A stretch of 39,966 nucleotides of DNA from a candidate division WWE3 bacterium (lineage in GTDB: Bacteria > Patescibacteriota > 4484-211 > GCA-002791395), in NCBI GenBank assembly GCA_013335095.1, contig JAAXWF010000003.1, positions 220,048 through 260,013 on the forward strand. The letters run 5' to 3'. Both the position numbers and the translations under genes were made by a program. Shown one piece after another: positions 3,989 to 20,610 of the stretch. The first letter of the stretch is position 1. Each line of letters opens with the position of its first letter. The notes below the pieces were generated by a model that worked only from the letters and a program-made list of their open reading frames with translations, made no database searches and had not been told where the DNA came from.

Positions 3989-6900
3989 ATGCAGATATTA
4001 TTAAGTCTACTACTCTCAATTCTCACATTTTCTAGATGGTTTGTATTTAAAACATTAACTTTTGGTGATTGGGGGTATTTATTCAATAAGACGTTAATAG
4101 AATGGTTCAATCTACCCTTTATCTGGAATTCACAAAGCGGACTCGGAAGTGTTAATTTAACAGCGTCCTCTTGGTTTATCAATGCGATGTTTGGGTTAGT
4201 TGGGTTCTTATTTAATACCGATTCCTGGCTCTCAGATAAGTTAATTTATATGATTCCAATAGCGATCATGTTACCTTTTTCAAGTTATTTTTTAATGGGA
4301 TTATGGATTAAAAATAAATGGTCGCGAATGATTGGATCGATAGTTTATTCGTATAATACATACTCGTTATTACTTTCATCTAACCATCTAACATTATTAG
4401 CCGCATATTCAATAGCACCTCTTTTTTTGCGTTTCTTCATAAGTCTTTTTGATAATCCTACTTTCCTTAAGATAATATTGACAGCATTAATTGCTGGAAT
4501 ACTTAGTTTCTATGATTTTAGAGTGTTATACATATTATTTGGGGTTTGCTTTATTTATTATTTATTCAATATTTCATTCGCTAAAAACAAAATAAAAATC
4601 ACAATATATTCTGCTTTTACATTAGTAATCGTAGGTCTCTACCATATCTACTGGATATTGGGTCTAGCTAATCAGGGTTCGATTACTGAAAATGCAATTT
4701 TCAGTAGAGGATTATTTGGTAGTTCATTTATGGATATTGAACAGTCTCTTACCTTGTTTCACCCTTTTTGGACTGGTGGATTACCAGCAGACTTTATCGT
4801 ACAGCCGATACCCCTATATTTGTTTTTAGTTCCAATAATAGCATTTACTTCATTTATGCTATTTCCTAAAAATAAAAATGTATTATTTTGGGTAGTTATT
4901 AGTTTAGTTGGAATATTTTTGACAAAACAAGAATCAATTCCATTTAGGAATGCTTATTTATGGTTATATCATTATCTTCCTGGGTTTAATGCCTTTAGAG
5001 AAGCAAGTAAGTTTTATTTATTAATTTCATTGGGATTCAGTGTTTTAATTGCATATACGACTGATTATATTTTAGTAAGGAAGAATAAAATCCTTAAAGT
5101 TACGTATATAGCTATCGTTGTTGGAATTTTTGGGATAAATATAGTTCCTCTAATTACAGGCAAGATTGATTCGCTGTTCGTTCCACGAACCATTGATAGC
5201 GACTATCAATTAGTGGCGAATAATTCTATTAATGATAACCGATATCATCGAACATTATGGGTACCATCTAATGTTAAATGGTCATTTTATTCATATCAGC
5301 ATCCAATACTATCTGCAGTGGGCTTAATGAATGGTCCTTTAGAACAATTTATGTTAAGCAAATCGATCGGCGTGCGTTTACCGATACAGAATCAAATCAC
5401 CGAATTGTTCAAGTATTCATATTCCGATAGGATTTTAGATTCATCATCTATACAGTATATATTCATACCCACCGAAGATTATAAGAACAATAGTAATATT
5501 TTTAAATTTTATGGTTATGATCGGCAATTTTACATAGATAGTCTCGATAATATTCCATACATTTCCAAAACGAACTCGTCACTTAATGAGCTAATAAAGT
5601 ATGAAAATGCTAACTCAGAAAATTATTTCTGGTCTGACACACAATTTTTCCAATTAGTAAAAGATGATAATTTGGACCAAACATACCATTTTGTAAGCAA
5701 TCGTTTTGATCAAACGGCTGATTTTACAACACAAATTGGTGCGAACATCAATTCATACTACATTAAAGACGTTTTTGGCTCAACCAATTACCCGGAAATA
5801 TCTAATAAAAAGATAGAAAAAAACCTACAATCTGCTAGTGCATTATCTAGTATTTATTGGAATACGGGTATGTACAACATTTTCATCGAATTGAAAAATA
5901 ACTCATTGAATGTAAGCAAAAAAATAGAAAAAGCTTTAAGAATAAATAATAAAGAGCTCAGTTTGAGTGACTCTGAGTCAATCAATCTATATTCACAGAC
6001 AGTAGATACAAATAATGATTTTTTTATACGAACTGGAAATACAATTACAAAAGTTAACGACAATAATCCAATAGATCTTGGAGTCATAAAAAAAGATATA
6101 ACTATTTATCAATCTCAGTCAACTAATTTGATCGAAAATCCATCCTTTGAAGATGGACCATGGTCAGACCGCGTAGGTGACTGTAATGCATATGACGATA
6201 ATGCAAATATAAAAATGGAAGTAGTAAATGATTCGATAGATGGGGCCTCATCTTTAGGCCTTTCTTCTATGAACCATATTGCCTGCACCGGAACCCCAAT
6301 GATACCCACTGAACCAGGTGAGTATGTATTGTCATTTAGTTACAAAAGTAATGATGCAAGGCAAGCCGGTTACTATTTGGGGTTCAGCAACGAAGATATA
6401 CCAGCAATCTCCAAGAGATTGCCGATAACATCTTCAGATTGGGTTAATTTTAGTACGCAAATATCAGTTAAACCTGAAGCTAGTGGTATTCGCTTAACTA
6501 TTTATGGATACCCAACAGATGAAAAAGAATATATCGAAACTCTGTATGACAACTTCAAATTAGTCAAAGTTACTCAAATCGCAAATTTAAATCCCAATTA
6601 TATTGAAAATTATCAAAAATTTATCCTTGAAAACAAATCTGATTACAATATTACATATTACGATGATAACTTTTTGGGTAAAAATAACATACGAAATGCA
6701 TCGTTTGAAACAGGACTTTGGCAAAATTCGGTCGGTGACTGCAATGCGTATGATGATAATGGTAAATTAGGGTTCGGTCTCGATACTGATGAAAAATCTG
6801 ATGGTGATTCATCCCTACGTCTTGAAGCTACTCGTCATACGGCATGTACAGGACCAGGTTTACTCAATGTTTCAGAGGATAAATCCTACTTATTTAGTTT

Positions 6901-7648
6901 TGATTATCAATCACCGAATGCTGAGCAGGTAGGGTATTATCTCGGATTTAACGATGATAATAACTCAATAAATAGCCGCCAAATTCCTGTAGAAAATCAA
7001 AAATGGAATACTTTTAATAAAATAATCAAAGCACCATCGGGAGCGACTGCGGTATCTCTGACCGTATATGGATACAGTAAGGATGATAAAACTAACGTTA
7101 TCACTCGTTACGATAACTTTCACCTCATTGAATTGCCAGATATCGAAGATCGGTTCTATCTTGTGAGTGAACCTGATAAAAAGCTAGAACAACCTAGAGA
7201 TATTCAATTTCAACTGATTAACCCTACACTAAAAACCGTACAAATAACTGCTGCATCAACACCTTTCTACCTAAACATGAGCGAAGCATATCATCCACAA
7301 TGGCAAGCACAAATCGAAAATACAAAAAACACTGGATTTTGGAACAGTTGGTTGCCATTTGTTAAGCCAGATCGAATCGAAGACGATAAACATTACAAAC
7401 TTAATAACTTCTTAAATGGATGGTATATCGACACTCAAGAAATTTGCAACAATAAATCGCTATGTACCCAAAATGATGATGGAACATACAACATCAAATT
7501 ACGAATAGAATTCTTTCCCCAACGCTGGTTTTATTTGGGATTGCTCATTTCGGGCACAACCCTGGTAGCTTGCTTAATGTATCTGTCGATAATCGGAGGG
7601 AAAACATTCTATAAAAAAATCCGGGAGCACAGGGCTCCCGGTGGTTGA
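3989..7648 (+). CDS. Large polytopic membrane protein (GT-C/AftD/YfhO-like N-terminus) with two carbohydrate-binding (CBM4/9-like) repeats and a C-terminal TM helix
   Basis: About 11 hydrophobic segments in the N-terminal ~390 aa with PGFNAFREASKF; two N-x-I-x-N-x-SFE-x-G repeats; SEAYHPQW and NGWYI motifs before the final TM. Confidence 0.7.
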   Translation: MQILLSLLLSILTFSRWFVFKTLTFGDWGYLFNKTLIEWFNLPFIWNSQSGLGSVNLTASSWFINAMFGLVGFLFNTDSWLSDKLIYMIPIAIMLPFSSYFLMGLWIKNKWSRMIGSIVYSYNTYSLLLSSNHLTLLAAYSIAPLFLRFFISLFDNPTFLKIILTALIAGILSFYDFRVLYILFGVCFIYYLFNISFAKNKIKITIYSAFTLVIVGLYHIYWILGLANQGSITENAIFSRGLFGSSFMDIEQSLTLFHPFWTGGLPADFIVQPIPLYLFLVPIIAFTSFMLFPKNKNVLFWVVISLVGIFLTKQESIPFRNAYLWLYHYLPGFNAFREASKFYLLISLGFSVLIAYTTDYILVRKNKILKVTYIAIVVGIFGINIVPLITGKIDSLFVPRTIDSDYQLVANNSINDNRYHRTLWVPSNVKWSFYSYQHPILSAVGLMNGPLEQFMLSKSIGVRLPIQNQITELFKYSYSDRILDSSSIQYIFIPTEDYKNNSNIFKFYGYDRQFYIDSLDNIPYISKTNSSLNELIKYENANSENYFWSDTQFFQLVKDDNLDQTYHFVSNRFDQTADFTTQIGANINSYYIKDVFGSTNYPEISNKKIEKNLQSASALSSIYWNTGMYNIFIELKNNSLNVSKKIEKALRINNKELSLSDSESINLYSQTVDTNNDFFIRTGNTITKVNDNNPIDLGVIKKDITIYQSQSTNLIENPSFEDGPWSDRVGDCNAYDDNANIKMEVVNDSIDGASSLGLSSMNHIACTGTPMIPTEPGEYVLSFSYKSNDARQAGYYLGFSNEDIPAISKRLPITSSDWVNFSTQISVKPEASGIRLTIYGYPTDEKEYIETLYDNFKLVKVTQIANLNPNYIENYQKFILENKSDYNITYYDDNFLGKNNIRNASFETGLWQNSVGDCNAYDDNGKLGFGLDTDEKSDGDSSLRLEATRHTACTGPGLLNVSEDKSYLFSFDYQSPNAEQVGYYLGFNDDNNSINSRQIPVENQKWNTFNKIIKAPSGATAVSLTVYGYSKDDKTNVITRYDNFHLIELPDIEDRFYLVSEPDKKLEQPRDIQFQLINPTLKTVQITAASTPFYLNMSEAYHPQWQAQIENTKNTGFWNSWLPFVKPDRIEDDKHYKLNNFLNGWYIDTQEICNNKSLCTQNDDGTYNIKLRIEFFPQRWFYLGLLISGTTLVACLMYLSIIGGKTFYKKIREHRAPGG
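6125..7126 (+). repeat. Intragenic tandem domain duplication (~146-148 aa units at 6125-6562 and 6683-7126)
   Basis: NLIENPSFEDGPWSDRVGDCNAYDD...HIACTG...GYYLGF...LTIYGY...YDNFKL versus NNIRNASFETGLWQNSVGDCNAYDD...HTACTG...GYYLGF...LTVYGY...YDNFHL. Confidence 0.9.
7613..7641 (-). terminator. Intrinsic terminator, array unit 1
   Basis: CCGGGAGC-acagg-GCTCCCGG (7621-7641) with A7 on + (U-tract on -); lies inside the last codons of the 1219-aa gene. Confidence 0.85.
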
Positions 7649-7658
7649 TGCGAAACGA

Positions 7659-8402
7659 CTAGGCATTATCTGCTTCGTCGATCTCCTCCAGTGTTACCAG
7701 GTAGTTTCCCTTGGCTGCGATTTCGATCTGGATAAAAGCGAAATGCCTTTCGCTACTTGCCTCTGGGCAAGTCCAGTCGTGAATCACATAACCAGACGGA
7801 TCGACCAGCGTCAATCCGATGTGATCATTGCAAATCTCGATCGTCATGGTAGCGTCTGTCTTTGACGGATCCCATGACAATGGACGTTCGATAATAATCC
7901 GATAATTCAGGCTCGCCATGGTACCCAAAGCTCTGGAACCATAGTTATACTGAAACCGGATCCGGTGCGGGTGCATTCTCACCGCGCATTGGGTCAGCTC
8001 GCTCCGGACTGCAGCAAGAATCGCCCCTGAATCGACTGTCGTTCGTGGTCGAGTACTATGCGATGTCACGCTGACGCCGCTGGGCATGATGATTCGAAGA
8101 CAAGCCGTTACGACATCGAATGGAATAATCTCATCGAACAGCTCGACCATCTTCAGCATGCGTCCGACCTCATCGTACGTCATGTAAAGGACGTGCTGTC
8201 GATGCTCACCGACGAACACAAACGCGTGCGTCGTCGTACAGATTCCGCTCTTTTCAGCATGAACGACGGTTACCGACTCGTACATACCCCCGTCCTGCGC
8301 GAAAACCAGCGCGGCTGTGGGTGGCAGAAAGCCAGCCATTGGCTGCACTGCGACGTTGAGTAACTGCTCAATCCGTTCCATTTGACTCTGGGCTGCACCC
8401 AT
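7659..8402 (-). CDS. Array gene 1: two-domain hypothetical protein, paralog of 10092-10832
   Basis: SD AAGGAGCGCCCT-ATG; C-domain HPHRIRF..NY...LNYRIIIERPL..DP..T.ATMT; collinear with gene 5 over its whole length. Confidence 0.85.
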   Translation of the reverse strand: MGAAQSQMERIEQLLNVAVQPMAGFLPPTAALVFAQDGGMYESVTVVHAEKSGICTTTHAFVFVGEHRQHVLYMTYDEVGRMLKMVELFDEIIPFDVVTACLRIIMPSGVSVTSHSTRPRTTVDSGAILAAVRSELTQCAVRMHPHRIRFQYNYGSRALGTMASLNYRIIIERPLSWDPSKTDATMTIEICNDHIGLTLVDPSGYVIHDWTCPEASSERHFAFIQIEIAAKGNYLVTLEEIDEADNA

Positions 8403-8486
8403 AGGGCGCTCCTTTCACTCTCATGAAAGACCGATAGTGTAATTATAGCATAGGAAAAAGTAAAACCGGGGACATTAAGCCCCCGG
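8403..8486 (-). promoter_or_regulatory. Intergenic module: terminator + extended -10 + CTATCGG box + SD
   Basis: Hairpin 8466-8486; TGCTATAAT (8442-8450); CTATCGG (8431-8437); AAGGAG. Confidence 0.85.
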
Positions 8487-8504
8487 ACAAGAGAAAAATC
8501 TTAA

Positions 8505-8939
8505 CTACTCGATATACCCAACCGCACGGGCGATCAATTCGCTCATCACGATGGACTGATTAGTCTGTTCAATCGCCAAGGACACGATTCCGGCACTGGG
8601 GAATACCCCAAGAATCCATCCCAGTAAATCGTCGGCACACTCATAAGCACATACAGCATGTGCTATCAGAATCCCATTGCTGTACCGAAGTATCATTTCG
8701 GCCGCGAGATCGTAAAGGGAAATGGTCATGGTTGCGACCGTAATGGGCGGATGATCAGTTAACGGACGTTCGATCACAATCTGATAAATCAGATCCGAAA
8801 CCTCCTCGGCTTGTGGCGCATTATTAAAAAGAACCCGAACTCGATGAGGATGACCAACTACCTGATTAGTGGTAAGTTCGGCCACAACCCGTTCGATCAT
8901 ACCATCCATTGAGACTGCAGTTAGATCTGCACCAGACAT
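8505..8939 (-). CDS. Array gene 2: single-domain hypothetical protein
   Basis: SD GAGGAG; GHPHRVRVLFN...LIYQIVIERPL...ATMTI...LLGWIL....AGI matches the C-domain of genes 1 and 5. Confidence 0.85.
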   Translation of the reverse strand: MSGADLTAVSMDGMIERVVAELTTNQVVGHPHRVRVLFNNAPQAEEVSDLIYQIVIERPLTDHPPITVATMTISLYDLAAEMILRYSNGILIAHAVCAYECADDLLGWILGVFPSAGIVSLAIEQTNQSIVMSELIARAVGYIE

Positions 8940-9038
8940 ACCGGTCTCCTCTCGTGGTAAGTACCACTGTATCTAACTTTGAACCCAAAAGATTGTAACA
9001 TGAACAACAAAAAAACCGGGAGCAAAGGCTGCTCCCGG
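8940..9038 (-). promoter_or_regulatory. Intergenic module: terminator + extended -10 + leader hairpin + SD
   Basis: CCGGGAGCA-aaggc-TGCTCCCGG (9016-9038); TGTTACAAT (8992-9000); GTGGTA-ag-TACCAC (8954-8967); GAGGAG. Confidence 0.85.
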
Positions 9039-9063
9039 CATTGGTTTGGCACGGTCTATTTTT

Positions 9064-9441
9064 TTATTCGAAGCTGATCGCGTTGATCCCACGCGCCTTC
9101 AGAAGGCGAAGGGTCAGGTAGAGCACCTCCATCGGATTGGTGATCGGAACGGAGGTGTAACCGAGATCCTCAACGGTGGTTAGCTCGGTATAAGCCTCCT
9201 TGGAGACTATAATCTCCATCGTGTACTCACCGATATTGACAACGACAGCGCTGTCATTGTCATGAAAGATCACGATCTGGGCTATCTTGCCGGGTACAAA
9301 TCGGCAGATAACCGTTTTGACGACTTTGACGTCTTCATTTAGTGAAAAGAGTCCGAAGATGTCATCCGAACCTGTGCGGCTTGTCAAAACGCCTTGACCA
9401 AGCAACTGCTCGATCACTTCACGAGAATCTTGCGCATCCAT
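9064..9441 (-). CDS. Array gene 3: hypothetical protein
   Basis: SD AAGGAGCGTCCA-ATG; N-terminal MDA...IEQLL as in genes 1 and 5; QIVI strand; C-terminal NP.EVL...L.LL.A.GI. Confidence 0.8.
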   Translation of the reverse strand: MDAQDSREVIEQLLGQGVLTSRTGSDDIFGLFSLNEDVKVVKTVICRFVPGKIAQIVIFHDNDSAVVVNIGEYTMEIIVSKEAYTELTTVEDLGYTSVPITNPMEVLYLTLRLLKARGINAISFE

Positions 9442-9520
9442 TGGACGCTCCTTACGCTAACTAAAGACCGATAGTGTTTAGTATACCATAAAAAAACCGG
9501 GAGCATCAAATCTCCCGGTT
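9442..9520 (-). promoter_or_regulatory. Intergenic module: terminator + extended -10 + CTATCGG box + SD
   Basis: AACCGGGAG...CTCCCGGTT (9495-9520); TGGTATACT (9480-9488); CTATCGG (9468-9474). Confidence 0.85.
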
Positions 9521-9543
9521 GTAGTTTACTCACGTATCACTAC

Positions 9544-9972
9544 TTAAATGACAGAGGCATTCACATTTGCCATTTCAAGACGTACACTCCCAAGCTGAAG
9601 TTGTGCGAACATGCGAAGCGTCGTGGCAACGTATTCAGCGCCGTTTATCACGCACATGTTCATATGGGCTAGAGGATGAAAGATATCATCGCCAATCACC
9701 ACCAAGACAATGAGTTGGCGAAAAATATTGATGCTGATGCCGACCATGGACTTCTCATCCTTTGGTCTTACCACAATCCGAACAACGACGCCGCTGGTAC
9801 TGACCTCATCGTAAAATAGGCCAGTAATAACAAGCTCCCCGTGATCTCTCCGCAGTTCTTGCAGCCGATTACTCAGCGTGTATAAGAACTCCGAAATCGA
9901 ACACTCAAGTGGAAAGCAACCAAACAGACTCCCGGAGTCATTCAGGTAGTCGATCCATTGACGTGCATCCAT
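9544..9972 (-). CDS. Array gene 4: hypothetical protein
   Basis: SD AAGGAGCGTCCG-ATG; MDA start; VRIVVRP resembles the family RIVIERP strand. Confidence 0.8.
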   Translation of the reverse strand: MDARQWIDYLNDSGSLFGCFPLECSISEFLYTLSNRLQELRRDHGELVITGLFYDEVSTSGVVVRIVVRPKDEKSMVGISINIFRQLIVLVVIGDDIFHPLAHMNMCVINGAEYVATTLRMFAQLQLGSVRLEMANVNASVI

Positions 9973-10067
9973 CGGACGCTCCTTACGTATTAGACTAGAC
10001 CGATAGCACGTATTTTAACATAAATATGAAAAGAAAATAAAAACCGGGAGCATAGGACTGCCCCCGG
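9973..10067 (-). promoter_or_regulatory. Intergenic module: terminator + extended -10 + CTATCGG box + SD
   Basis: Hairpin 10044-10067 (G.U pair on - strand); TGTTAAAAT (10012-10020); CTATCGG (10000-10006). Confidence 0.85.
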
Positions 10068-10091
10068 TCAACTTATACGAACTGAATATCG

Positions 10092-10832
10092 TCAATCTAT
10101 ACTGTCGGTGAATTCGTAAGCAACCTGCCTGATGCCCGCCGAAGCGATTTCGATCTGTAGCCAGACCAACATCGACTCAAACTCAGACGTCATGCAGATA
10201 ACCTCCCTCATCACGATCCCGGACGAGTGGATCAAGCTGAGTACCGTTCTATCGTCGAATAGATCCACTGTCATTGTCGCTTCTGTCTGAAGTGGATCGG
10301 CGCCCAATGGTCGTTCGATCACGATTCGATAGTTCAGTTTCGCGGGCAAACTGATAGCTGTCTCGCCGTAATTGAACTCGATGCGAACTCGATGTGGATG
10401 CCCGGGCAGAGCCCTTTCAGTTAGCTCACTTCGCACAAGTGCGAGTAGCCCTTCTGAATGGACTTCCATGATAGGACTCATCGATGACGTGATCACATTG
10501 ATCTGGTTCTCAAGAAGAATACGCAAATACACACACCCGATTTCGTGTGTATTCTTTACCGTAAACACTTCTGGTCCAGCCAGAATCTTACCGTCTGAGT
10601 CATAACTCAGATAGGTTACCTGCTCACCCTTTTCTCCGGAAAAGGTGAATGCATACGTGATCGCGTACCGTACATCATCACGGAGGTGAACGACATCAAG
10701 CCACTCATACATTGCGGCTTGACCTGGAGCAGCGAAAATCATCTGAGCACTGGGTCCCTGAAATCCTTGATGAGGTTTGACAGCCACAAACAAGAGCTGT
10801 TCGACACGATCCAATGAACTGATTGCATCCAC
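10092..10832 (-). CDS. Array gene 5: two-domain hypothetical protein (GTG start), paralog of gene 1
   Basis: SD AAGGAGCGTCCT-GTG; VRSELT...GHPHRVRIEFNYG...LNYRIVIERPL..DP..TEATMT...QIEIA..G. Confidence 0.85.
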   Translation of the reverse strand: MDAISSLDRVEQLLFVAVKPHQGFQGPSAQMIFAAPGQAAMYEWLDVVHLRDDVRYAITYAFTFSGEKGEQVTYLSYDSDGKILAGPEVFTVKNTHEIGCVYLRILLENQINVITSSMSPIMEVHSEGLLALVRSELTERALPGHPHRVRIEFNYGETAISLPAKLNYRIVIERPLGADPLQTEATMTVDLFDDRTVLSLIHSSGIVMREVICMTSEFESMLVWLQIEIASAGIRQVAYEFTDSID

Positions 10833-10915
10833 AGGACGCTCCTTTACTTATATCTATAGCCGATAGTGTTGATTATATCATTTGAAAAAAATCCGGGAGC
10901 AAGATATGCCCCCGG
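10833..10915 (-). promoter_or_regulatory. Intergenic module: terminator + extended -10 + CTATCGG box + SD
   Basis: Hairpin 10893-10915; TGATATAAT (10872-10880); CTATCGG (10860-10866). Confidence 0.85.
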
Positions 10916-10933
10916 ACAGAGCGGTTTAACTCA

Positions 10934-11365
10934 TTAGTACCCTAAAGCTAGATGCATCTCTTTAGGGATGTAGTCCTTCTCATCGATGGCCTTCATGGTC
11001 AGATCTGTCATTCCAGCTTTCGTGAGTAGGCCCAGAATCCAGAAAAGGGCACCTTCAGGGTAATCGATTTCACTAATGAGGTGAACCGGAGCCCCTGCAT
11101 CTTGTTCGAGCGTTGCAATCACGAATGCTGAATCATAGACGGTACAGACAACCTGACCTGCGCCATTAAACGTACCGTCAGCATTCGGCAGTTCAATGAT
11201 TATTCGGGCACAAAGGTCCGAGCTCACCAGTGTTAGCGCTTCGCCGACGTTGAATTCAATCCGAATGCGAGGAAGGCAGCCATCGACACTTCGACCGCTA
11301 AAGAGTTCTGGAAAGTATCGCTCCAGATCCTCTTCGTTCACAACTCGATATACGACGCCTGACAT
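10934..11365 (-). CDS. Array gene 6: hypothetical protein
   Basis: SD AAGGAGCTGACC-ATG; PRIRIEFN...DLCARIIIELPNA...PEGALFWILGLLTKAG; closest to gene 7. Confidence 0.85.
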   Translation of the reverse strand: MSGVVYRVVNEEDLERYFPELFSGRSVDGCLPRIRIEFNVGEALTLVSSDLCARIIIELPNADGTFNGAGQVVCTVYDSAFVIATLEQDAGAPVHLISEIDYPEGALFWILGLLTKAGMTDLTMKAIDEKDYIPKEMHLALGY

Positions 11366-11453
11366 GGTCAGCTCCTTTCGGCATCTGCCGACATCAACGA
11401 ATCACGGTTTATGAATTGTACCATTATAAATATGGGAGCATTGCTGCTCCCAT
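11366..11453 (-). promoter_or_regulatory. Intergenic module with degenerate terminator + extended -10 + leader hairpin + SD
   Basis: ATGGGAGCA-ttgc-TGCTCCCAT (11432-11453); TGGTACAAT (11415-11423); TCGGCA-tc-TGCCGA (11378-11391). Confidence 0.75.
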
Positions 11454-11490
11454 TCATATTCACATAAAATTGTGGACGAACCCCGATCAC

Positions 11491-11895
11491 TTAATCGATC
11501 GCAATATACGCTTCAGCTGGTACCTGAACCTCTTCCTGAATGCAACTGAGCCTGAGGTTATTAACCCCGGCATTGCCAATAAGCTCAAGCATCCATGCAA
11601 GAAATCCATCAGGATTATCCAGCGGTCCGAGCAATACCGGTAAGCTCGGATCGGGGAAGGTAATCACCGCGACGCAGATGTACACATCCATCTTGATCTG
11701 CTCGGCTAAACCACCAGCATTCGGACGGTTTATTATGATACGAAAGCACAGATCCGTGGCTTCGGTTTCCAGCAACTCACTTGAGTTTATCTGAACGAGT
11801 GCCTCAAGGTTGCGTCCGTGCGTCAAGTTATCCGTGATCTCTTTCTTCCAGAGCTCTAAAAGCTCTTCGTCAAAAATAACTCGATACTCTGACAT
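11491..11895 (-). CDS. Array gene 7: hypothetical protein
   Basis: SD AAGGAGCTGACCT-ATG; YRV..EE.LE, DLCFRIIINRPNA, PDGFLAWML.L...AG shared with gene 6. Confidence 0.85.
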   Translation of the reverse strand: MSEYRVIFDEELLELWKKEITDNLTHGRNLEALVQINSSELLETEATDLCFRIIINRPNAGGLAEQIKMDVYICVAVITFPDPSLPVLLGPLDNPDGFLAWMLELIGNAGVNNLRLSCIQEEVQVPAEAYIAID

Positions 11896-11988
11896 AGGTC
11901 AGCTCCTTATGGCATACGCCATCTTCGATCAATTACGGCATCTGGATTGTACCATCAAATGAAAAAACCGGGAGCGTGATGCCCCCGG
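11896..11988 (-). promoter_or_regulatory. Intergenic module: terminator + extended -10 + leader hairpin + SD
   Basis: Hairpin 11968-11988; TGGTACAAT (11946-11954); ATGGC-atac-GCCAT (11909-11922). Confidence 0.85.
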
Positions 11989-12009
11989 TACCTTGTATTT
12001 GGCTTTTGT

Positions 12010-12432
12010 TTACACCGACAAATCGTCAAAGCTGAATGAAACTTCAACGATCGGATCACATACATCCATGTGGATGTTCGTGTTTAAGGTTTGTCCAATA
12101 ATCTCGAAAACACGCGACACAAAAGTCGCGATATTTTCGATGTCACACACTAAGATCTCACTACGAACAATGCCACCACTCAACGTTCGTTGAAGAAACG
12201 CCTTATTGGCGTGCAACGAAACATATGTTGCCACCTGGCCCGAAAAGCCAGGTTGATCATACGGTGGTCGCTCGATGACAATTCGACGATAAACCGCTAC
12301 TGATCCAAGGGGAGCGGCTTCACGAAGCCACGTAATCCTTGGCTGGACTCCTGACGGATGACGATATTGCAATTCCTGAGTGAGGCTCTGCAATACCTCC
12401 TCTATGGAGACATGACGCTGGGGGTCGGCCAT
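12010..12432 (-). CDS. Array gene 8: hypothetical protein (start revised to ATG 12432); second gene of a bicistronic unit
   Basis: GGAGG-aagtt-ATG 12 nt after the gene 9 stop; QPRIT...RRIVIERP.YDQPG. Confidence 0.8.
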   Translation of the reverse strand: MADPQRHVSIEEVLQSLTQELQYRHPSGVQPRITWLREAAPLGSVAVYRRIVIERPPYDQPGFSGQVATYVSLHANKAFLQRTLSGGIVRSEILVCDIENIATFVSRVFEIIGQTLNTNIHMDVCDPIVEVSFSFDDLSV

Positions 12433-12444
12433 AACTTCCTCCAA

Positions 12445-12861
12445 TTACATGTATCCGAGGGGTTCCTTAAGACGATCAGGCATGTCTTGGGGAAGATCCT
12501 CAAGCTCCTCAATCTTAAAGCTTGCGATCCCACATCGCTTCAAGATTGTCAGAATCCATCCAAGCACGTCATTCGGATCAACGATCTCACACACGGACAT
12601 CATTGCAGGCTTGTCTGCGTCCTGATACTGAATGACAAGCTCCGCGGCCTCCTCATAAATATCGAGGGTGATAGTTGACGCTATTAGCGTCGGCTCAGGC
12701 GTGCTTGAGGTGATCACGATCCGATATGCCAAAACGGAGACTATCAGCTCCTCAGTGCACAGAAACAAGACTGCGTTAGCCGTATTCCCAGCTCGAGACT
12801 GATCCAGTAACTCTGATTCAATGCTCAGAAGCAGCGAATCGTCCGATACGAGATCTGACAT
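12445..12861 (-). CDS. Array gene 9: hypothetical protein (start revised to ATG 12861)
   Basis: SD AAGGAGCTGACT-ATG; the longer ORF call runs through promoter and terminator; LAYRIVI, IYEEAAELVIQY, DVLGWIL...GI and terminal LGY resemble genes 2 and 6. Confidence 0.85.
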   Translation of the reverse strand: MSDLVSDDSLLLSIESELLDQSRAGNTANAVLFLCTEELIVSVLAYRIVITSSTPEPTLIASTITLDIYEEAAELVIQYQDADKPAMMSVCEIVDPNDVLGWILTILKRCGIASFKIEELEDLPQDMPDRLKEPLGYM

Positions 12862-12959
12862 AGTCAGCTCCTTTACCAACTTCTTGTTGGCATAAACTAG
12901 GGCCGATAGTGTATTGATTGTACCATGAAAAAAAATGCCGGGAACAAAACGTCCCCGGC
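12862..12959 (-). promoter_or_regulatory. Intergenic module: terminator + extended -10 + CTATCGG box + leader hairpin + SD
   Basis: Hairpin 12937-12959; TGGTACAAT (12917-12925); CTATCGG (12903-12909); CCAAC-ttctt-GTTGG (12876-12890). Confidence 0.85.
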
Positions 12960-12982
12960 TGTTTGAGAAAGATGCCAAACCT

Positions 12983-13357
12983 TTACCGAGATGAGTACAT
13001 CGGATGAACCATGCGGATCATACAAAGTCCCATCTGGGCAGTCCACTCATGGACAAAGTCCATAAGCTGACACTTATTAACTTCATTAAACACACGGGGT
13101 GCACGTACGACCTGCCCCATCGCTTGTGTTTCATACATCTGAGCCGTGCCATCGTTCTCAACAACGAGATGGACACATTCGTCTAGAACAGCGTTCGGTC
13201 CAAATTCCGACTTACGGCGATGCTGCGCAATTATCGCGCGAACATCTCCGGTGTCATCGGTAAGGATATGCACAAACGGCATATCAAAACCGACCCGGGG
13301 TGCGGTCATAAGTACATATACCCGATGAATATCGGGCGCCGCGACTATGTGGTTCAT
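12983..13357 (-). CDS. Array gene 10: hypothetical protein; second gene of a bicistronic unit
   Basis: AGGAG SD within the 14-nt gap after the gene 11 stop; P..GF..P...and G....P.VF pattern resembles the N-domain of genes 1 and 5. Confidence 0.75.
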   Translation of the reverse strand: MNHIVAAPDIHRVYVLMTAPRVGFDMPFVHILTDDTGDVRAIIAQHRRKSEFGPNAVLDECVHLVVENDGTAQMYETQAMGQVVRAPRVFNEVNKCQLMDFVHEWTAQMGLCMIRMVHPMYSSR

Positions 13358-13371
13358 TGCCCATCTCCTAG

Positions 13372-13791
13372 TTAGATAAGGGGGAAACCGATTTCACTAT
13401 CATTCGTGCCAAGGGTATGAACGTAAACAGTCACGATTGGCAATCCCGCACATAAGGCGAGTACGATTCCGATGATCCGGTCTGACGATTCCATATCGAA
13501 TCGCTGGGGTTGATTACGAACATATCCGCCATGAAATGACGTCACAAACTCCACAAACCCTACACCGAACTGAATAAACGTGGTGCTCGTTTTTACGGCA
13601 CCAGGTTGTTCACTCACATCCCATTCAATCACTACCCGTCCGTTGATCGTTAGAGTCTCGGGTGATACAGGATCTTCGATGAGGATCGTTATCCGAGGGG
13701 GAAAACCTTCGACGCATTTTCGCTTGATTCTACGTTGCAGTTCCTGCAAAGCATAGATCAGGCTAGCGTTCTCCAGATCACTTCCTGACAT
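13372..13791 (-). CDS. Array gene 11: hypothetical protein (start revised to ATG 13791)
   Basis: SD AAGGAGCTGACC-ATG; PPRIT...GRVVIEWD..EQPG...S.TFI; closest to gene 13. Confidence 0.85.
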   Translation of the reverse strand: MSGSDLENASLIYALQELQRRIKRKCVEGFPPRITILIEDPVSPETLTINGRVVIEWDVSEQPGAVKTSTTFIQFGVGFVEFVTSFHGGYVRNQPQRFDMESSDRIIGIVLALCAGLPIVTVYVHTLGTNDSEIGFPLI

Positions 13792-13873
13792 GGTCAGCTC
13801 CTTTATACTCAATCGACCGATAGTCAAAGTGATTGTATCATAAAAAAACCCGGATGCGATGTGCACCCGGGTT
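13792..13873 (-). promoter_or_regulatory. Intergenic module: terminator + extended -10 + CTATCGG box + SD
   Basis: Hairpin 13847-13873; TGATACAAT (13832-13840); CTATCGG (13817-13823). Confidence 0.85.
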
Positions 13874-13897
13874 CCGTTTGACTCGAATCTGCTTTGG

Positions 13898-14305
13898 TTA
13901 GTGGATCGGTCGATCAAGAACGATGTCGTTGGTTTGCGCCTCACGAATCGAGGTGATTTGTTGCAGCGCGCATAAGCGACGGATGGCTGCGATCGTCTCT
14001 TCAACCGAATCAATTGGGTAGTAAAGCGAAGCGGTTCGCTTTAGGCCTCCGTCGTAGACAGTGAATAATTCGACTTCATTGTCGTAGAAGACGACAAACA
14101 TCGTCTCATTCCCAGCTAAGCCAGGGCGGAATCGGGGATTCCTTTCGATCACGAACCTCGCCCTAAGCAACGTAGCGTATCGCGTGGCGACGGCACCGTC
14201 ATTTTTCAGGAGAGTAACCCGAGGAGCTCGGGTTTTCTCAGGATCGAAATGAAGCGACACAGCGACCTCGGCTAAAAGCCGTTCCATCGGATGGCTGTCT
14301 GACAT
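13898..14305 (-). CDS. Array gene 12: hypothetical protein
   Basis: SD AAAGGA-CTGACC-ATG; APRVTL...ARFVIERNP...PG...VELFT..DGG. Confidence 0.85.
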   Translation of the reverse strand: MSDSHPMERLLAEVAVSLHFDPEKTRAPRVTLLKNDGAVATRYATLLRARFVIERNPRFRPGLAGNETMFVVFYDNEVELFTVYDGGLKRTASLYYPIDSVEETIAAIRRLCALQQITSIREAQTNDIVLDRPIH

Positions 14306-14352
14306 GGTCAGTCCTTTCCTTATATGTGATATCCGATAGTGATATTATAGCA
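14306..14352 (-). promoter_or_regulatory. Extended -10 + CTATCGG box + SD (no terminator hairpin upstream)
   Basis: TGCTATAAT (14344-14352); CTATCGG (14333-14339). Confidence 0.8.
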
Positions 14353-14379
14353 TCCCATAGTACTCATTTATATGAACGG

Positions 14380-14808
14380 TTATGAATCGGACATTCCTAT
14401 ATCAAAAGACTCTTTTTTGTCCGAAATACTTACGGGAATCTTGTGCACCTGAATTATTTTGATATCGTAGGTTGCGCCTAAAATGAACAATGCTCCAAGA
14501 ATAACTGACGGGGATTCCACACTAGCAATGTGATATGGACCATGAGTAAATCCACCATCGTCAGTAGTAAATAGCACCACTTGATTTGGAAGTAGATCAA
14601 TAAAGGTGCGAGATTGTCCTATACCACCAGGATGGTCTTTTAGATCCCACTCGATAGCTATTCTACCGGTGAGCTCAGTTAAACATCCCGCCAGTGCCGT
14701 AGGGTGAATTGCGACACTGATACGACCAAAGCTTCCTTTCGAATGGGTCGTTTCCAAGATATGTCGCAGTTGAGCGAGCAAATCATCTAGTGTTACCTCG
14801 ACTGACAT
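14380..14808 (-). CDS. Array gene 13: hypothetical protein
   Basis: SD GAGGAGG; GRIS...GRIAIEWD..DHPG...SRTFI...VVLFT..DGG...ES...ILG. Confidence 0.85.
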   Translation of the reverse strand: MSVEVTLDDLLAQLRHILETTHSKGSFGRISVAIHPTALAGCLTELTGRIAIEWDLKDHPGGIGQSRTFIDLLPNQVVLFTTDDGGFTHGPYHIASVESPSVILGALFILGATYDIKIIQVHKIPVSISDKKESFDIGMSDS

Positions 14809-14892
14809 AAGCCCTCCTCACATAACGGATGATTGAACCTATAAAATTATATAGTATTTGAATTAAATGCCGGAAAGTTAGACTTCCCGGCA
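14809..14892 (-). promoter_or_regulatory. Intergenic module: terminator + -10 + SD
   Basis: TGCCGGAAAGT-tag-ACTTCCCGGCA (14868-14892); TATAAT on - (14846-14851), no TGn extension. Confidence 0.75.
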
Positions 14893-14899
14893 GGCATTA

Positions 14900-15301
14900 T
14901 CACACCATAGAATCAGGAGATGCGTCATGTGCTCGTACAAAAACAATTTGCGCACCAACAGATCGTATAGTCGCGGCACACACTATGTGACCGACGATAG
15001 CGATCGGGTCAATATCCTCAAATCGCTCAACATCACGAGAGTTGACGCCGGCAGCAATCACTTCTCGAATCTGCAAAGAATGCATTCCCGAATCACTCAT
15101 ACTAAAGAGATACAAGTACGTGACTCGACTCTCTCCTCCAGGAGCCTGCGGATCATCGTGCTCAATAATGATCCGTCGGATAGTTGGTTCGGTGTGCATA
15201 CCAGAGGCGAGTACGGTAAGTGTAATATTGTGTCGCGTCTTTTGTCGATCTATATGCCGACTAATGTGCTCAACAAGTCCTGGGGGAAGACTGATGGCCA
15301 T
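14900..15301 (-). CDS. Array gene 14: hypothetical protein (start revised to ATG 15301)
   Basis: SD AAGGAGTGGTCAT-ATG; RRIIIEHDDPQAPGG...TYL...DIDP. Confidence 0.8.
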   Translation of the reverse strand: MAISLPPGLVEHISRHIDRQKTRHNITLTVLASGMHTEPTIRRIIIEHDDPQAPGGESRVTYLYLFSMSDSGMHSLQIREVIAAGVNSRDVERFEDIDPIAIVGHIVCAATIRSVGAQIVFVRAHDASPDSMV

Positions 15302-15385
15302 ATGACCACTCCTTATGATTACAACACCTGATTGTAAGTTTTTAGATTGTAACATGAAAAAGGGGAGGCAACGGTCTGCCTCCCC
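15302..15385 (-). promoter_or_regulatory. Intergenic module: terminator + extended -10 + leader hairpin + SD
   Basis: GGGGAGGCA-acggtc-TGCCTCCCC (15362-15385); TGTTACAAT (15346-15354); TTACAA...TTGTAA (15319-15337). Confidence 0.8.
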
Positions 15386-15393
15386 GGTTTGAA

Positions 15394-15762
15394 CTACGAC
15401 TGGTCCTCAGTTTCGAGGACAAACAGGATCGACTGCGCAAGTTGTGCGCAGCACCATACCAGACACTCCATGATCCGGCTCGGATGAATGTCCTTTATCA
15501 CCGACTGCTCGGTGCAAAGGCCAGATTCTTCGAAATACAGGTGCTGACCCAACAGAGACACGACGATCCTCCGCTGCTCTGTTCCGGCTTCATCGTAGTG
15601 GAGGATTTGAATCACATCAGGTATGGCACCATACGATGTCGTGATTACCCGAACCGCAACCTCATGACCGGGCAAAGCCGGTAACATGAGCATGAGCTGA
15701 GCCCGAAGAATCACGTCGCGGATGTCCTGGCAGAACCCAGTTCCGGCAATTGTGTCAGACAT
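15394..15762 (-). CDS. Array gene 15: hypothetical protein
   Basis: SD AAAGGA; contains ALPGH (as gene 5) and KDIHPSRIM (compare EDIDPIAI in gene 14, YVDPSQLM in gene 16). Confidence 0.75.
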   Translation of the reverse strand: MSDTIAGTGFCQDIRDVILRAQLMLMLPALPGHEVAVRVITTSYGAIPDVIQILHYDEAGTEQRRIVVSLLGQHLYFEESGLCTEQSVIKDIHPSRIMECLVWCCAQLAQSILFVLETEDQS

Positions 15763-15875
15763 AACCTGACGTCCTTTGCTCTATGCGGATTAACCGATAG
15801 TACGTAGTATATCATAAATGAAAGTAGTAGCTAAAAAATACAAAATGAAAGCCGAGAGAAAAAACTTCTCCCGGC
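15763..15875 (-). promoter_or_regulatory. Intergenic module: terminator + extended -10 + CTATCGG box + SD
   Basis: Hairpin 15851-15875; TGATATACT (15806-15814); CTATCGG (15794-15800). Confidence 0.8.
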
Positions 15876-15883
15876 CCGTTTTA

Positions 15884-16228
15884 CTAACGTGTAATTATGC
15901 GAACCTCACCGTCGAAATGATCGTTAATGAGTTTCATGAGTTGAGAAGGATCAACGTAGGCAAGTTGCTGCTTACTATCGATCCATTCTCCACCATTGTG
16001 TCCGATATGGTATCGAATCCCGCCTGCATCAATAATGAAGAAGACGGAATGAGTTCGATAAGTGCCAATCGAACGCTTGTGGCGGTGATTTACCACGATC
16101 TGCTCAAGGGACCTTGCGTCATCGACAAAACGATAGATCAACAGGATTTCTGGTTGATTATAGTCTTGAGCCTGAGCTAGGCTCTCTCGCAAAAGCTCCA
16201 GGACATGCTGTCCGCCAACGGCTTGCAT
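15884..16228 (-). CDS. Array gene 16 (first in transcription order): hypothetical protein
   Basis: SD AAGGAGCTTGCA-ATG; TGGTATAAT at 16277-16285; LELL helix, QIVVNHR strand, VDPSQLM helix cap. Confidence 0.8.
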   Translation of the reverse strand: MQAVGGQHVLELLRESLAQAQDYNQPEILLIYRFVDDARSLEQIVVNHRHKRSIGTYRTHSVFFIIDAGGIRYHIGHNGGEWIDSKQQLAYVDPSQLMKLINDHFDGEVRIITR

Positions 16229-16369
16229 TGCAAGCTCCTTCCATATTGTGAAGTTCGCTTAAAACCGCGCAAATCGATTATACCAATTCAATGTAACTTT
16301 AAAACCTGTAGTATACTCATACCTGAGAATCGGTCTCATGATTGGCAAGGATAGGTAGGAGGACCAACA

Positions 16370-17434: not shown

Positions 17435-17456
17435 GGTTGTTCGTTGAAAATAATAT

Positions 17457-17488
17457 GCCCCGGGGAGAACTTCCCCGGGGCTTTTTTT
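17457..17488. terminator. Intrinsic terminator between convergent genes, possibly bidirectional
   Basis: GCCCCGGGGA-gaact-TCCCCGGGGC followed by T7, with A-rich left flank. Confidence 0.9.
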
Positions 17489-17810: not shown

Positions 17811-17951
17811 AATCACCCTCCCTGTATCACTGGTCAGTGATATCCATGACTTATACCAGTACGGATATTATAACCATTAAGAAAAGCCTACCGGTCAATT
17901 GCTATAATACTGGTGCTGATTAAAGTGGTGAATACTATTTCGGAGGTGACT

Positions 17952-18623: not shown

Positions 18624-18629
18624 TATGTT

Positions 18630-18660
18630 GAGCCGGTTGTTTTTAACAATCGGCTCCTTT
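18630..18660 (+). terminator. Intrinsic terminator
   Basis: GAGCCGGTTGTT-ttt-AACAATCGGCTC then CTTT. Confidence 0.7.
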
Positions 18661-18676
18661 CATTCCATAAATATCG

Positions 18677-20609: not shown

Positions 20610-20610
20610 T

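Follow-up and report, generated by a model that had tools for sequence, protein, structure and literature searches.

Array organization and gene content

Within the window, by which we mean the whole 39,966-nucleotide stretch of DNA analysed, the ORF listing of this tiny-genome bacterium contains 16 co-oriented minus-strand genes between positions 7659 and 16228 (g1 to g16; Table 1). With starts chosen by ribosome-binding site (RBS), 14 of these encode products of 114-144 aa and two encode products of 246 and 247 aa, agreeing in number, strand and size with an initial annotation of this DNA. Each has a start codon and an RBS, GC1 exceeds GC2 in all 16, and g3, g4 and g5 have in common the start context AAGGAGCGTCC-N-ATGGATGC. 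A 33,994-bp contig produced by a second assembler, not fully independent because it derives from the same sample, was compared with the window from 5945 to 20000 and differs from it in no letter; the assembly chimera that the initial annotation raised as a possibility is not obvious.

Table 1. Coordinates of array genes and associated intergenic signals (window positions).
Feature	Position	Strand	Description
g1	7659..8402	-	247 aa; two domains, N-half (kin of g5 N-half) and core-family C-half; C-half matches core HMM
g2	8505..8939	-	144 aa; core family, subfamily 1 (BLAST, HMM, tree); predicted homodimer
g3	9064..9441	-	125 aa; distant core-family member (profile comparison)
g4	9544..9972	-	142 aa; distant core-family member (profile comparison, 109-131 columns aligned)
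g5	10092..10832	-	246 aa; GTG start; N-half and core-family C-half (BLAST, HMM)
g6	10934..11365	-	143 aa; core family, subfamily 1 (BLAST, HMM, tree)
g7	11491..11895	-	134 aa; core family, subfamily 1 (BLAST, HMM, tree)
g8	12010..12432	-	140 aa; core family, subfamily 2 (BLAST, HMM, tree); GGAGG RBS, coupled to g9 across 12 nt; lacks a separate promoter
g9	12445..12861	-	138 aa; core family, subfamily 1 (BLAST, HMM, tree)
g10	12983..13357	-	124 aa; coupled to g11 (14 nt gap); ORF and RBS; no core kinship by statistics
g11	13372..13791	-	139 aa; core family, subfamily 2 (BLAST, HMM, tree)
g12	13898..14305	-	135 aa; core family, subfamily 2 (BLAST, HMM, tree)
g13	14380..14808	-	142 aa; core family, subfamily 2 (BLAST, HMM, tree); promoter a plain TATAAT; no terminator hairpin behind
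g14	14900..15301	-	133 aa, starting with the ATG at 15301, for which RBS and promoter were also read; has an RRIIIEHD strand; core-family membership borderline
g15	15394..15762	-	122 aa; marginal (profile controls)
g16	15884..16228	-	114 aa; core-like element order and structural neighbours; no sequence link to core
Terminator hairpins with T-runs (13)	7621-7641, 8466-8486, 9015-9039, 9495-9520, 10042-10069, 10891-10917, 11432-11453, 11967-11989, 12937-12959, 13845-13875, 14868-14892, 15362-15385, 15849-15877	-	Behind g1-g8, g10, g12, g14, g15, g16
Extended -10 boxes TGnTAnAMT (13)	8442, 8992, 9480, 10012, 10872, 11415, 11946, 12917, 13832, 14344, 15346, 15806, 16277 (each +8)	-	Before g1-g7, g9, g11, g12, g14, g15, g16
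Leader box ACTATCGG	8431, 9468, 10860, 12903, 13817, 14333, 15794 (each +7)	-	Before g1, g3, g5, g9, g11, g12, g15

Genes as predicted individual expression cassettes

Sequence signals divide the 16 genes into 14 cassettes of promoter, leader, RBS, ORF and terminator, built from a terminator hairpin, an extended -10, a ACTATCGG leader box, an AAGGAGC RBS and an ORF of ~130 codons. A promoter of its own is predicted for 14 of the 16 genes, and a terminator of its own for 13 of the 14 units. Terminator-like hairpins number 29, against 7.8 +/- 2.4 in shuffles, and 13 of them lie directly behind array genes; most of these 13 have the stem CCGGGRG...CYCCCGG, a pattern with six sites in the genome, all inside the array, and none in 100 relatives. 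Of 151 genome bins of 8.7 kb, the array has the highest density of strictly defined hairpins. The extended -10 (TGnTAnAMT) occurs 24 times in the window (whole-window expectation 15.8 +/- 3.5), including the 13 minus-strand copies before array genes. A two-hexamer sigma-70 scan showed no enrichment (10 found, 13.9 expected), so that promoters are called here from the extended -10. The ACTATCGG box sits 3-8 nt past the -10 (10 nt in g11) and is represented in the g4 leader by the variant GCTATCGG at about 10000; seven of its 47 genome sites, and seven of nine composites of -10 plus box, are in the array. Close spacing to the preceding gene is confined to g8 and g10, in the translationally coupled pairs g9-g8 and g11-g10. 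The initial view of the genes as mostly individual transcription units is borne out at the level of these predicted signals, which the copies have for themselves. After the array come ~9 kb of DNA with more orphan genes that likewise have terminators of their own (16, against 7.0 expected).

Kinship and divergence of the encoded proteins

BLAST, with E-values computed in a 16-sequence database, linked ten domains (g1 C-half, g2, g5 C-half, g6-g9 and g11-g13; E 1e-4 to 4e-21), and exactly these ten were matched when an HMM of this core interrogated the six-frame ORFs of the genome. The tree resolves two subfamilies (support 98/96), with the sole outside relative nested in subfamily 1. The two long proteins, g1 and g5, are 41% identical over 244 aa (E 3e-59), and their N-halves match each other with an hhalign probability of 98.5%.

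Other members were assessed by hhalign against the core profile. The score of g3 was reached by none of 60 shuffles and none of 120 real-protein segments; g4 likewise exceeded all 60 shuffles (marginally, 19.9 versus a shuffle maximum of 19.1) and all 120 real-protein controls. Both had initially been credited with the general pattern only; by profile comparison they are distant members of the core family. The same annotation had counted g14 with the ten BLAST-linked members; it exceeded all 60 shuffles, but four of 120 real-protein controls reached its score, and its position is borderline. Scores as high as that of g10 were obtained by 11 of 60 shuffles and by 87/120 and 17-32/100 controls; for g15 the figures were 4-5/100 real controls against an extended profile, and 45/120 and 53/60 against the core profile. 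For the N-halves of g1 and g5, as for g10 and g15, such null or marginal statistics lend no support to the proposal of a single amplified fold; it does stand for 12-14 of the 18 domains (ten by BLAST and HMM, g3 and g4 by profile, g14 as a borderline case and g16 by its structure model). One two-layer alpha/beta architecture is common to no fewer than 12 of these domains and probably to others as well.

Identity between paralogs is 20-40%, with several relationships beyond detection, and terminal branches exceed one change per site. The array proteins are very deeply diverged, and short regulatory motifs have been kept meanwhile.

Distribution and genomic surroundings

From 1.84 billion representatives (E <= 0.001), 15 matches were retrieved, comprising ten self-matches, four giant repeat proteins and one true relative, P0012 (E 7e-10). 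Known locations of the family are a single genome and a contig of 2.4 kb; none of 60 relatives contains it, the one positive among 61 genomes being the source genome itself. All eight array proteins looked up belong to clusters of 1-2 members, and g15 (among 5.8 billion clusters) and g16 retrieved only themselves. That no known family is represented, as first supposed, was the result in Pfam (0/16 proteins reaching any cut-off, immunity families included), in PHROGs (no family among ten proteins scanned) and in PADLOC, where no model matched and the only row paired g3 with a type I REase model (E 0.027). No relatives of g2 were found in viral contigs. We conclude that the tandem array is real and restricted to its lineage, and that it was made by repeated duplication of the entire cassette.

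Pfam annotation of 24 neighbouring ORFs revealed glycosyltransferases, an M50-like peptidase and housekeeping-like enzymes, with no recognisable toxin, secretion or defence gene beside the array, and RHS, LXG and WXG100 had no match in the genome; the conflict system envisaged in the initial annotation is not borne out by these surveys. Integrase, capsid, terminase and other phage families were absent from the 40 window proteins searched with Pfam and the ten searched with PHROGs, and the window contains no tRNA. A different contig has a weakly matching VirB4-like ORF (E 8.8e-4, 18.8 bits; 23.3 with its neighbours, versus a cut-off of 21).

Predicted properties and structure

All 16 proteins are acidic (pI 4.05-6.36), which is weak evidence for a binding role because the genome's long ORFs are also low (median pI 5.73; 42% below 5.5). 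As first noted, no transmembrane segment is apparent, the highest 19-residue Kyte-Doolittle mean being 2.52, in a C-terminal helix/strand of g11. Invariant or near-invariant columns comprise only M1, S2 and one Arg and one Ile of the central strand.

In the AlphaFold2 model of g5, residues from about 121 to 246 form a block with pLDDT 80-97 (mostly 88-97), and the N-half is modelled at low confidence (32-59) as all-beta. The g16 model (pLDDT 78.9, pTM 0.74), from an input alignment without core-family rows, has the element order of the core domain, alpha-beta5-alpha-beta (helix, five-stranded meander, helix, strand), and 13 of the core domain's 30 structural neighbours recur in the top 50 of g16 among 48,161 chains. 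Among neighbours of the core domain, 5t86_A scores best (Z 6.0, rmsd 3.2 A, 89/104 residues), and g16 also matches it (Z 4.3, rmsd 3.6 A, 87 residues); a Z of 6 falls below 7-8, the tool's typical best score for models without a true match. Similarity to eL38 (8esq_k), SRP9/14 (2w9j_B, 7nfx_w), TT1805 (1wn9_A) and 5t86_A, a CdiA-CT toxin of the BECR fold (bioRxiv 10.64898/2026.05.10.723254), consists of a helix packed on an antiparallel sheet, with Z 4.2-6.0 and 60-89 residues aligned across both models; identities are 2-14%, and every Z is below 8, which by the tool's account may reflect a mere common arrangement. A weak structural echo present in both neighbour lists is PIM7(Bc) (8owu_C), an immunity protein (Z 4.2 and 4.4). 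Of the folds guessed initially, frataxin appears only for g16, at Z 3.9 and rank 49, and no YbjN or type III chaperone chain occurs within either top-50 list. No solved or viral structure stands out, and Foldseek gave no match at E <= 0.001, viral structures included. For the core architecture, nothing related was detectable in Pfam, PHROGs, PADLOC or the PDB, nor among predicted viral structures.

For g2, a symmetric dimer through the C-terminal helix and last strand is predicted, with an ipSAE of 0.58 (median of three) versus 0.01 for the best control, at least 96% of contacts in agreement between runs and a partner pLDDT of at least 86. Of 30 proteins solved as one-chain pairs, 20 attained this mark, as did one of 23 solved as single chains; these counts are only rough because our own alignment was used. 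The predicted interface is no more conserved than the remainder (mean pairwise BLOSUM 0.32 versus 0.51 elsewhere, one-sided p 0.45), so that a shared interface for mixing of paralogs is not supported.

We regard the following attributes as highly probable: a real, lineage-restricted array arising by cassette duplication, deep protein divergence with regulatory motifs kept, small acidic proteins without membrane segments, at least 12 of 18 domains of one architecture, and a predicted symmetric dimer of g2.

Possible roles of the array

As a possible explanation, advanced tentatively, the array may constitute a putative library of specific, non-enzymatic binders of immunity or inhibitor type. 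Conservation is confined to sheet-core positions with no invariant polar set, which argues for binders rather than enzymes; the acidic pI values, the predicted g2 homodimer and the weak PIM7(Bc) echo would fit this reading. The paralogs would be expressed constitutively and each separately, and would differ in which variant of an incoming protein (a toxin of a neighbour or host, or a phage protein) they neutralise. Immunity families are as a rule spread widely by transfer, and the restriction of this family to its two known locations counts against such a library, as do the doubtful membership of four of 18 domains (g10, g15 and the two N-halves), the lack of Pfam immunity matches and the surroundings devoid of recognisable toxin, secretion or defence genes.

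The library would parallel the immunity strings of esaG, tipC and SUKH. The type VII immunity paralogs esaG/DUF600, tsaI and tipC form tandem strings in Firmicutes, and resemble the array both in their numerous co-oriented, non-identical paralogous genes for a small cytoplasmic protein and in having short conserved DNA blocks beside variable parts (5' and 3' homology blocks in those strings, intergenic motifs here) (PMC9484751). Unlike them, the array has proteins of no related sequence, no adjacent toxin or secretion locus, far more diverged paralogs and its own promoters and terminators, and its conserved blocks span at most about 30 nt, so that recombination between blocks is not evident. 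The SUKH superfamily likewise includes tandem arrays of divergent paralogs, some proteins having two tandem domains, read as immunity to non-self toxins (PMC3113570); SUKH genes, however, are widespread in bacteria, whereas the array family has one outside relative and no SUKH/SMI1_KNR4 Pfam match. A format of one promoter and one terminator per gene does not appear in the available portions of these accounts of immunity strings (PMC9484751, PMC3113570).

Rather unlikely, in our judgement, is a role in lineage-specific cell biology instead of conflict, with the paralogs serving as cooperating subunits of one hetero-oligomer or as dimeric chaperone-like adaptors, each with its own client, possibly exported by a type IV-like machinery of the lineage. 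The predicted g2 dimer, the two-domain fusions g1 and g5 (a hint of domain pairing), the two coupled pairs and the VirB4-like ORF are consistent with this, and secretion chaperones are typically small, acidic, dimeric alpha/beta proteins. But 14 units with separate promoters and terminators would be an odd route to a stoichiometric complex, absence of the family from 60 relatives implies no role in a conserved machine, the array has neither a client nor a secretion gene beside it, and no Pfam chaperone family was matched.

Less probable again is that an old mobile element, or the remains of a prophage, carries the array as cargo; its genes would then be 'moron'-like accessories, for example for anti-defence or host takeover. 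Like phage morons, the array units are self-contained from promoter to terminator, encode family-less proteins and have GC above the genome mean (GC3 0.35-0.63 versus 0.362 +/- 0.081 for long ORFs), and further orphan genes with terminators follow the array. Unlike morons they are paralogous and contiguous, with an array-specific hairpin stem in the genome's densest terminator cluster; and the lack of phage families among the window proteins scanned and of tRNA in the window, together with the negative searches of viral contigs (with g2) and of viral structures (E <= 0.001), speaks against a mobile origin.

That the proteins are RNase-type toxins of the BECR fold we consider very improbable. 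Recurrence of 5t86_A as a neighbour and a conserved Arg and Glu on central strands would suit such toxins, but the Z-score is below that usual without a true match, uniform acidity is unlike RNA-binding toxins, the D/E/N-H-R/K triad is not invariant across the family, and 16 toxins without recognisable antidotes are implausible. An assembly artefact, or chance non-coding ORFs, is scarcely credible: the DNA is present in one sample only, but the same-sample second contig, the coding signals of all 16 genes, the confident fold models and the outside relative oppose it.

Returning to the tentatively favoured library of binders, the array is, on our analysis, mostly one previously unseen family, and it resembles a diversified set of putative binding proteins.

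An array of duplicated cassettes

The array consists of whole-cassette duplicates in which control elements are conserved around hyper-diverged coding sequence. Its sixteen consecutive minus-strand ORFs (g1 to g16, numbered left to right) confirm the paralog array described in the initial annotation, and occupy 8.7 kb, or 0.65% of an assembly of 1,339,809 bp in 8 contigs (contig GC 0.40-0.44). With starts chosen by ribosome-binding sites, fourteen encode proteins of 114-144 aa, and g1 (247 aa) and g5 (246 aa) each encode two domains, denoted N and C. The glycosyltransferase cluster on the left has a GC of 0.31; in the array GC stands higher, at 0.45-0.50, and this level is kept to ~19 kb. GC3 of array genes is 0.35-0.63, compared with 0.362 +/- 0.081 in 488 long ORFs of the genome, and every gene has a higher GC1 than GC2, the pattern expected of coding sequence in this frame. 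DNA repeats within the array are nearly all short intergenic blocks (30 nt or less); between coding sequences, similarity at the DNA level is confined to the surroundings of the RIVIERP strand in g1, g2 and g5. Coordinates are collected below.

Coordinates of the array and associated features (window positions unless a contig is named)
Feature	Coordinates	Strand	Properties
Window in the genome assembly (G000)	C2:220048-260013
Left block	1-7648		low GC (0.31); FkbM-type methyltransferase, three glycosyltransferases, 1219-aa protein
1219-aa multi-pass membrane protein	3989-7648	+
Part covered by the Logan contig, up to the end of the stretch compared	5945-20000
Array, g1 to g16	7659-16228	-	16 consecutive ORFs
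Leader of g1	8403-8504
Leader of g3	9442-9543
Start codon of g14	15301	-	ATG behind AAGGAG
Unannotatable genes	16300-25300		16 terminator-like sites vs 7.0 +/- 2.3 expected
354-aa orphan gene	16370-17434	+
Hairpin at the 354-aa gene	17457-17481		bidirectional
236-aa membrane protein	17913-18623	+	Peptidase_M50 match, E 1.5e-11, 44.5 bits
560-aa membrane protein	23015-24697	+
Non-array -10 plus ACTATCGG composite	C3:475285-475309	+
Non-array -10 plus ACTATCGG composite	C8:6914-6931	-

The DNA is present in one sequencing run, probably the source sample. An assembly chimera, the doubt raised at the outset, was checked against the Logan assembly of that run, in which a 33,994-bp contig, not fully independent since it was built from the same reads, carries both the GC step at ~7600 and the entire array unbroken, with zero differing letters.

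Read along the minus strand, the intergenic regions present a G+C hairpin with T-run, an extended -10 (TGnTAnAMT), the leader box ACTATCGG, AAGGAGC and ATG, in that order. The hairpin stem is mostly CCGGGRG...CYCCCGG and is followed immediately, after the T-run, by the extended -10; ACTATCGG lies 3-8 nt past the latter (10 nt in g11), at or just past the expected transcription start. A terminator scan yielded 29 hairpins, compared with 7.8 +/- 2.4 in shuffles, 13 of them directly behind array genes. A stricter scan placed 10 in the array (mean 1.0 per 8.7-kb bin), and when strict hairpins were counted by bin the array bin ranked top of 151 (9, next 6). Thirteen of the 24 TGnTAnAMT sites in the window precede array genes on the minus strand; the g13 promoter is a plain TATAAT, and a hairpin search behind this gene found none. 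Because the -10 box of g14 falls inside a long ORF, its true start is placed further in, at the tabulated ATG. An own -10 box thus accompanies 14 of the 16 genes, the promoterless exceptions being g8 and g10, which start 12 nt after g9 and 14 nt after g11, respectively. These signals predict 14 transcription units, 13 with a terminator. A classical two-hexamer promoter scan showed no enrichment (10 found vs 13.9 expected) and no RNA run is listed as containing this DNA, so the units count as predicted rather than observed.

The hairpin stem pattern has six sites in the genome, all inside the array, and none in 100 relatives with genomes of 0.5-2.1 Mb. The array likewise holds seven of the nine genomic composites of a -10 box plus ACTATCGG; frames downstream of the other two show no relation to array proteins. 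A start context of AAGGAGCGTCC-N-(A/G)TGGATGC is common to g3, g4 and g5, and g1 has the variant AAGGAGCGCCC-T-ATGGGTGC. The leader box is possibly an operator for a shared regulator. As the start of an mRNA 5' stem-loop it was rejected, with z from -3.12 to +1.50 over eight leaders and below -2 in one of them. In minimum-energy folds of the g1 and g3 leaders, the ribosome-binding site AAGGAG is paired with a TCTTT stretch that follows the leader box; the energies do not improve on those of shuffles (z -0.54 and -0.79), and the pairing may therefore be due to chance.

An integron cassette array was considered and rejected: integron cassettes are promoterless, whereas most array genes have their own -10 box; the array hairpins, as G+C stems with T-runs, have the form of intrinsic terminators and not of attC sites; and a Pfam scan of 40 window proteins (six ORFs at 31-39.3 kb lie outside it) found no phage family and no integrase such as the IntI tyrosine recombinase that would sit beside an integron array.

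Membership and distribution of the family

All-against-all BLAST joined ten domains into a core family (g1C, g2, g5C, g6, g7, g8, g9, g11, g12 and g13), and an HMM built from these, run at E <= 10 against the genome's six-frame ORFs, matched only the same ten. Their tree separates subfamily 1 (g1C, g5C, g2, g6, g7 and g9) from subfamily 2 (g8, g11, g12 and g13), with support 98/96 and with terminal branches of median 1.27 changes per site. One Ile is invariant in the alignment, with M1, S2 and one Arg nearly so, and no His is conserved; the best-conserved columns comprise the central strand (R-I-V-I-E), the Arg before it and a few Gly and Pro. The remaining domains were compared with controls in three tests, the last using a profile extended by g3, g4, g14 and P0012, the sole relative outside the array.

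Controls scoring at least as high as each remaining domain (core local, 60 shuffles; core global, 120 real segments; extended, 100 real segments)
Domain	Core local	Core global	Extended
g3	0/60	0/120	part of profile
g4	0/60 (19.9 vs max 19.1)	0/120	part of profile
g14	0/60	4/120	part of profile
g5N	28/60	14/120	2-3/100
g16	18/60	100/120	3-4/100
g15	53/60	45/120	4-5/100
g10	11/60	87/120	17-32/100
g1N	59/60	81/120	local 0/100 (13 N-terminal columns only), global 85/100

The initial annotation had proposed a single fold throughout, which holds for most domains and not for all, g10, g15, g1N and g5N being without consistent core-profile signal; g1N is plainly a relative of g5N (hhalign probability 98.5%). 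That no known family was recognized in the initial annotation is borne out: none of the 16 reaches a Pfam cut-off (listed rows, E 0.14-0.19, are to unrelated families), and the nine scanned against PHROGs gave no match. A PADLOC scan of seven array proteins and three neighbors returned g3 against REase_I as its sole row (E 0.027, 12.2 bits).

Interrogation of 1.84 billion representatives with the profile (E <= 0.001) retrieved 15 proteins, namely the ten window domains, P0012 and four giant repeat proteins. P0012 (131 aa, E 7e-10, on a 2.4-kb Logan contig) nests in subfamily 1, so the subfamily split is older than its divergence. The giant proteins (P0011 and P0013-P0015) were rejected as false positives, since in these tandem-repeat proteins, with 7-13 weak stretches each, small per-repeat scores sum up. 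The core family was found in none of 60 relatives; for P0012, reference genomes and JGI metagenomes yielded pattern matches of which none was confirmed; a single-protein scan of viral contigs revealed no relatives of g2; and g15, g16 and the divergent 354-aa neighbor retrieved only themselves among 5.8 billion clusters. Literature searches, covering most papers at the level of listings, returned no description of an equivalent array in candidate-phyla bacteria. The array family is new and near-orphan.

Predicted structure and dimerization

When g5 was modelled by AlphaFold2 from the family alignment, its C-domain came out as confident (block pLDDT 80-97, for the most part 88-97), comprising H126-139, E148-154, a short helix, E166-175, E183-192, E195-202, E207-214, H218-231 and E237-242; the N-half model is poor and all-beta (pLDDT 32-59). 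Circularity was to be avoided, and g16 was therefore modelled from an alignment of unassigned domains only (g16, g10, g5N, g1N and g15). Its best model (pLDDT 78.9, pTM 0.74; the other four 65.5-44.6) contains H4-17, E27-35, E38-50, E59-67, E70-77, E81-83, H94-104 and E109-113, a predicted order identical to that of the core domain. When 48,161 PDB representatives were searched, 30 of g5's best 50 rows aligned to the C-domain, and 13 of those chains recurred in g16's best 50 (chance ~0.03), an overlap that generic small alpha/beta chains inflate and that is accordingly read as shared architecture, with homology unproven. In these models the array family shows a small alpha/beta sandwich architecture.

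The best structural neighbors, 5t86_A for g5 (Z 6.0, rmsd 3.2 A, 89 aligned) and 8esq_k for g16 (Z 5.2, rmsd 2.7 A, 65 aligned), both score below the 7-8 typical of no match, and 5t86_A against g16 (Z 4.3, rmsd 3.6 A, 87 aligned) lies within the search background range. Of the folds guessed at in the initial annotation, frataxin/CyaY appeared for g16 at rank 49 (4hs5_A, Z 3.9, rmsd 2.8 A, 64 aligned), was absent from g5's best 50 and had no Pfam match; type III secretion class I chaperone and YbjN chains occurred among the best 50 of neither model and likewise had no Pfam match. Nothing at E <= 0.001 came from Foldseek, whether in the PDB (both models) or in predicted viral structures (g16). 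The ESM Atlas yielded no usable match, and a profile search of PDB sequences gave only three de novo designed proteins (E 0.02-0.44).

The g2 protein passes as a predicted homodimer, with a median score of 0.58 (best control 0.01), contact agreement of at least 96% between runs and partner pLDDT of at least 86. This mark was attained by 20 of the 30 proteins whose solved structures are one-chain pairs and by 1 of the 23 whose structures are single chains, counts that are only rough since our own alignment was used. In the prediction the chains meet at residues 36, 38 and 101-125, the last stretch comprising the C-terminal helix and final strand. This interface is not supported as the family's conserved part (0.32 vs 0.51 for the rest, p 0.45), and free mixing of paralogs through it is unsupported, its columns being no better conserved. 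The array proteins are acidic, soluble-looking and probably dimeric.

Genomic neighborhood

The left block ends 11 nt from the g1 stop codon; in the Logan assembly it is found as separate small contigs (word depth 4.9-6.5 vs 11). At the other end, the 354-aa orphan gene diverges from g16 over a 141-nt intergenic region, and its product has no Pfam, PHROGs or PADLOC match; by eye, the termini of the protein look helix-turn-helix-like. The product is a candidate array regulator. The M50-like peptidase lies in the array's GC-rich stretch, and to its right are ~6 kb more of genes that could not be annotated, of which many have a terminator each. By eye, too, the 1219-aa protein is similar in its N-terminal membrane part to the 560-aa protein, with a like stretch ...PGF..(L)RE(S/A)(A/S)K..., and the two may be paralogs flanking the orphan region. 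No tRNA occurs in the window. Among five same-family genomes, a YgjP-like neighbor has matches on very small contigs (33-39% identity, loci 1.7-3.3 kb) and the 1219-aa protein was not found.

Discussion

Conservation restricted to sheet-core positions, and the lack of an invariant polar set, make it more likely that the array proteins are binders than enzymes. The nearest arrangement known is that of strings of diversified immunity paralogs, esaG/tsaI/tipC (PMC9484751) and SUKH (PMC3113570); on this likeness we rank first, tentatively, an immunity- or inhibitor-like library of binders. None of the 16 proteins matches a known immunity family in Pfam (EsaG/DUF600, SUKH/SMI1_KNR4, Imm, CdiI), no toxin domain occurs in 24 neighboring ORFs, and RHS_repeat, WXG100 and LXG, the three families searched, have no match in the genome (92.6% complete), which encodes one weak VirB4-like ORF on another contig. 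With all testable features of known immunity families having failed, the library would describe a possible mode of working, not an identity. A conflict system would be a plausible interpretation of the array.

That the paralogs act as co-operating adaptors or subunits is less probable than such a library, and old mobile-element cargo, moron-like, in a window without phage or integrase families among the proteins scanned, is somewhat less probable again. Derivation from BECR-like toxins is very improbable: although the best neighbor of g5 belongs to this class, the array family differs from BECR-fold RNase toxins (CdiA-CT of 5T86, RelE, colicin D/E5) in having no conserved D/E/N, H and R/K, the catalytic set given in bioRxiv 10.64898/2026.05.10.723254. 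An artefact, set beside the unbroken second assembly, is scarcely credible. The remaining probability belongs to something not yet imagined.

A bolder form of the library, which we hold unlikely and on a par with adaptors, is that an unseen fold family expanded to ~18 separately expressed dimeric recognition modules, an innate "binder library" by which an ultra-small symbiont with a genome of just 1.34 Mb would neutralize diverse incoming proteins or manipulate its host. If so, the promoter-leader-terminator scaffold and common ACTATCGG box would let dosage and switching be set separately for every member, and the array would represent a locus for conflict or recognition of a new type, without homolog in known immunity, defense or effector families.

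The family would add a new small fold tolerant of extreme sequence change, useful to studies of protein evolution, and its cassette design is a clean natural case of genes that duplicated and then diverged while their regulation stayed constant. Ultra-small symbionts shed most genes, yet here 16 paralogs of a near-unique family are maintained with strong predicted expression signals; if these proteins are specific binders, they would provide a first handle on how such symbionts deal with toxins, phages or hosts.
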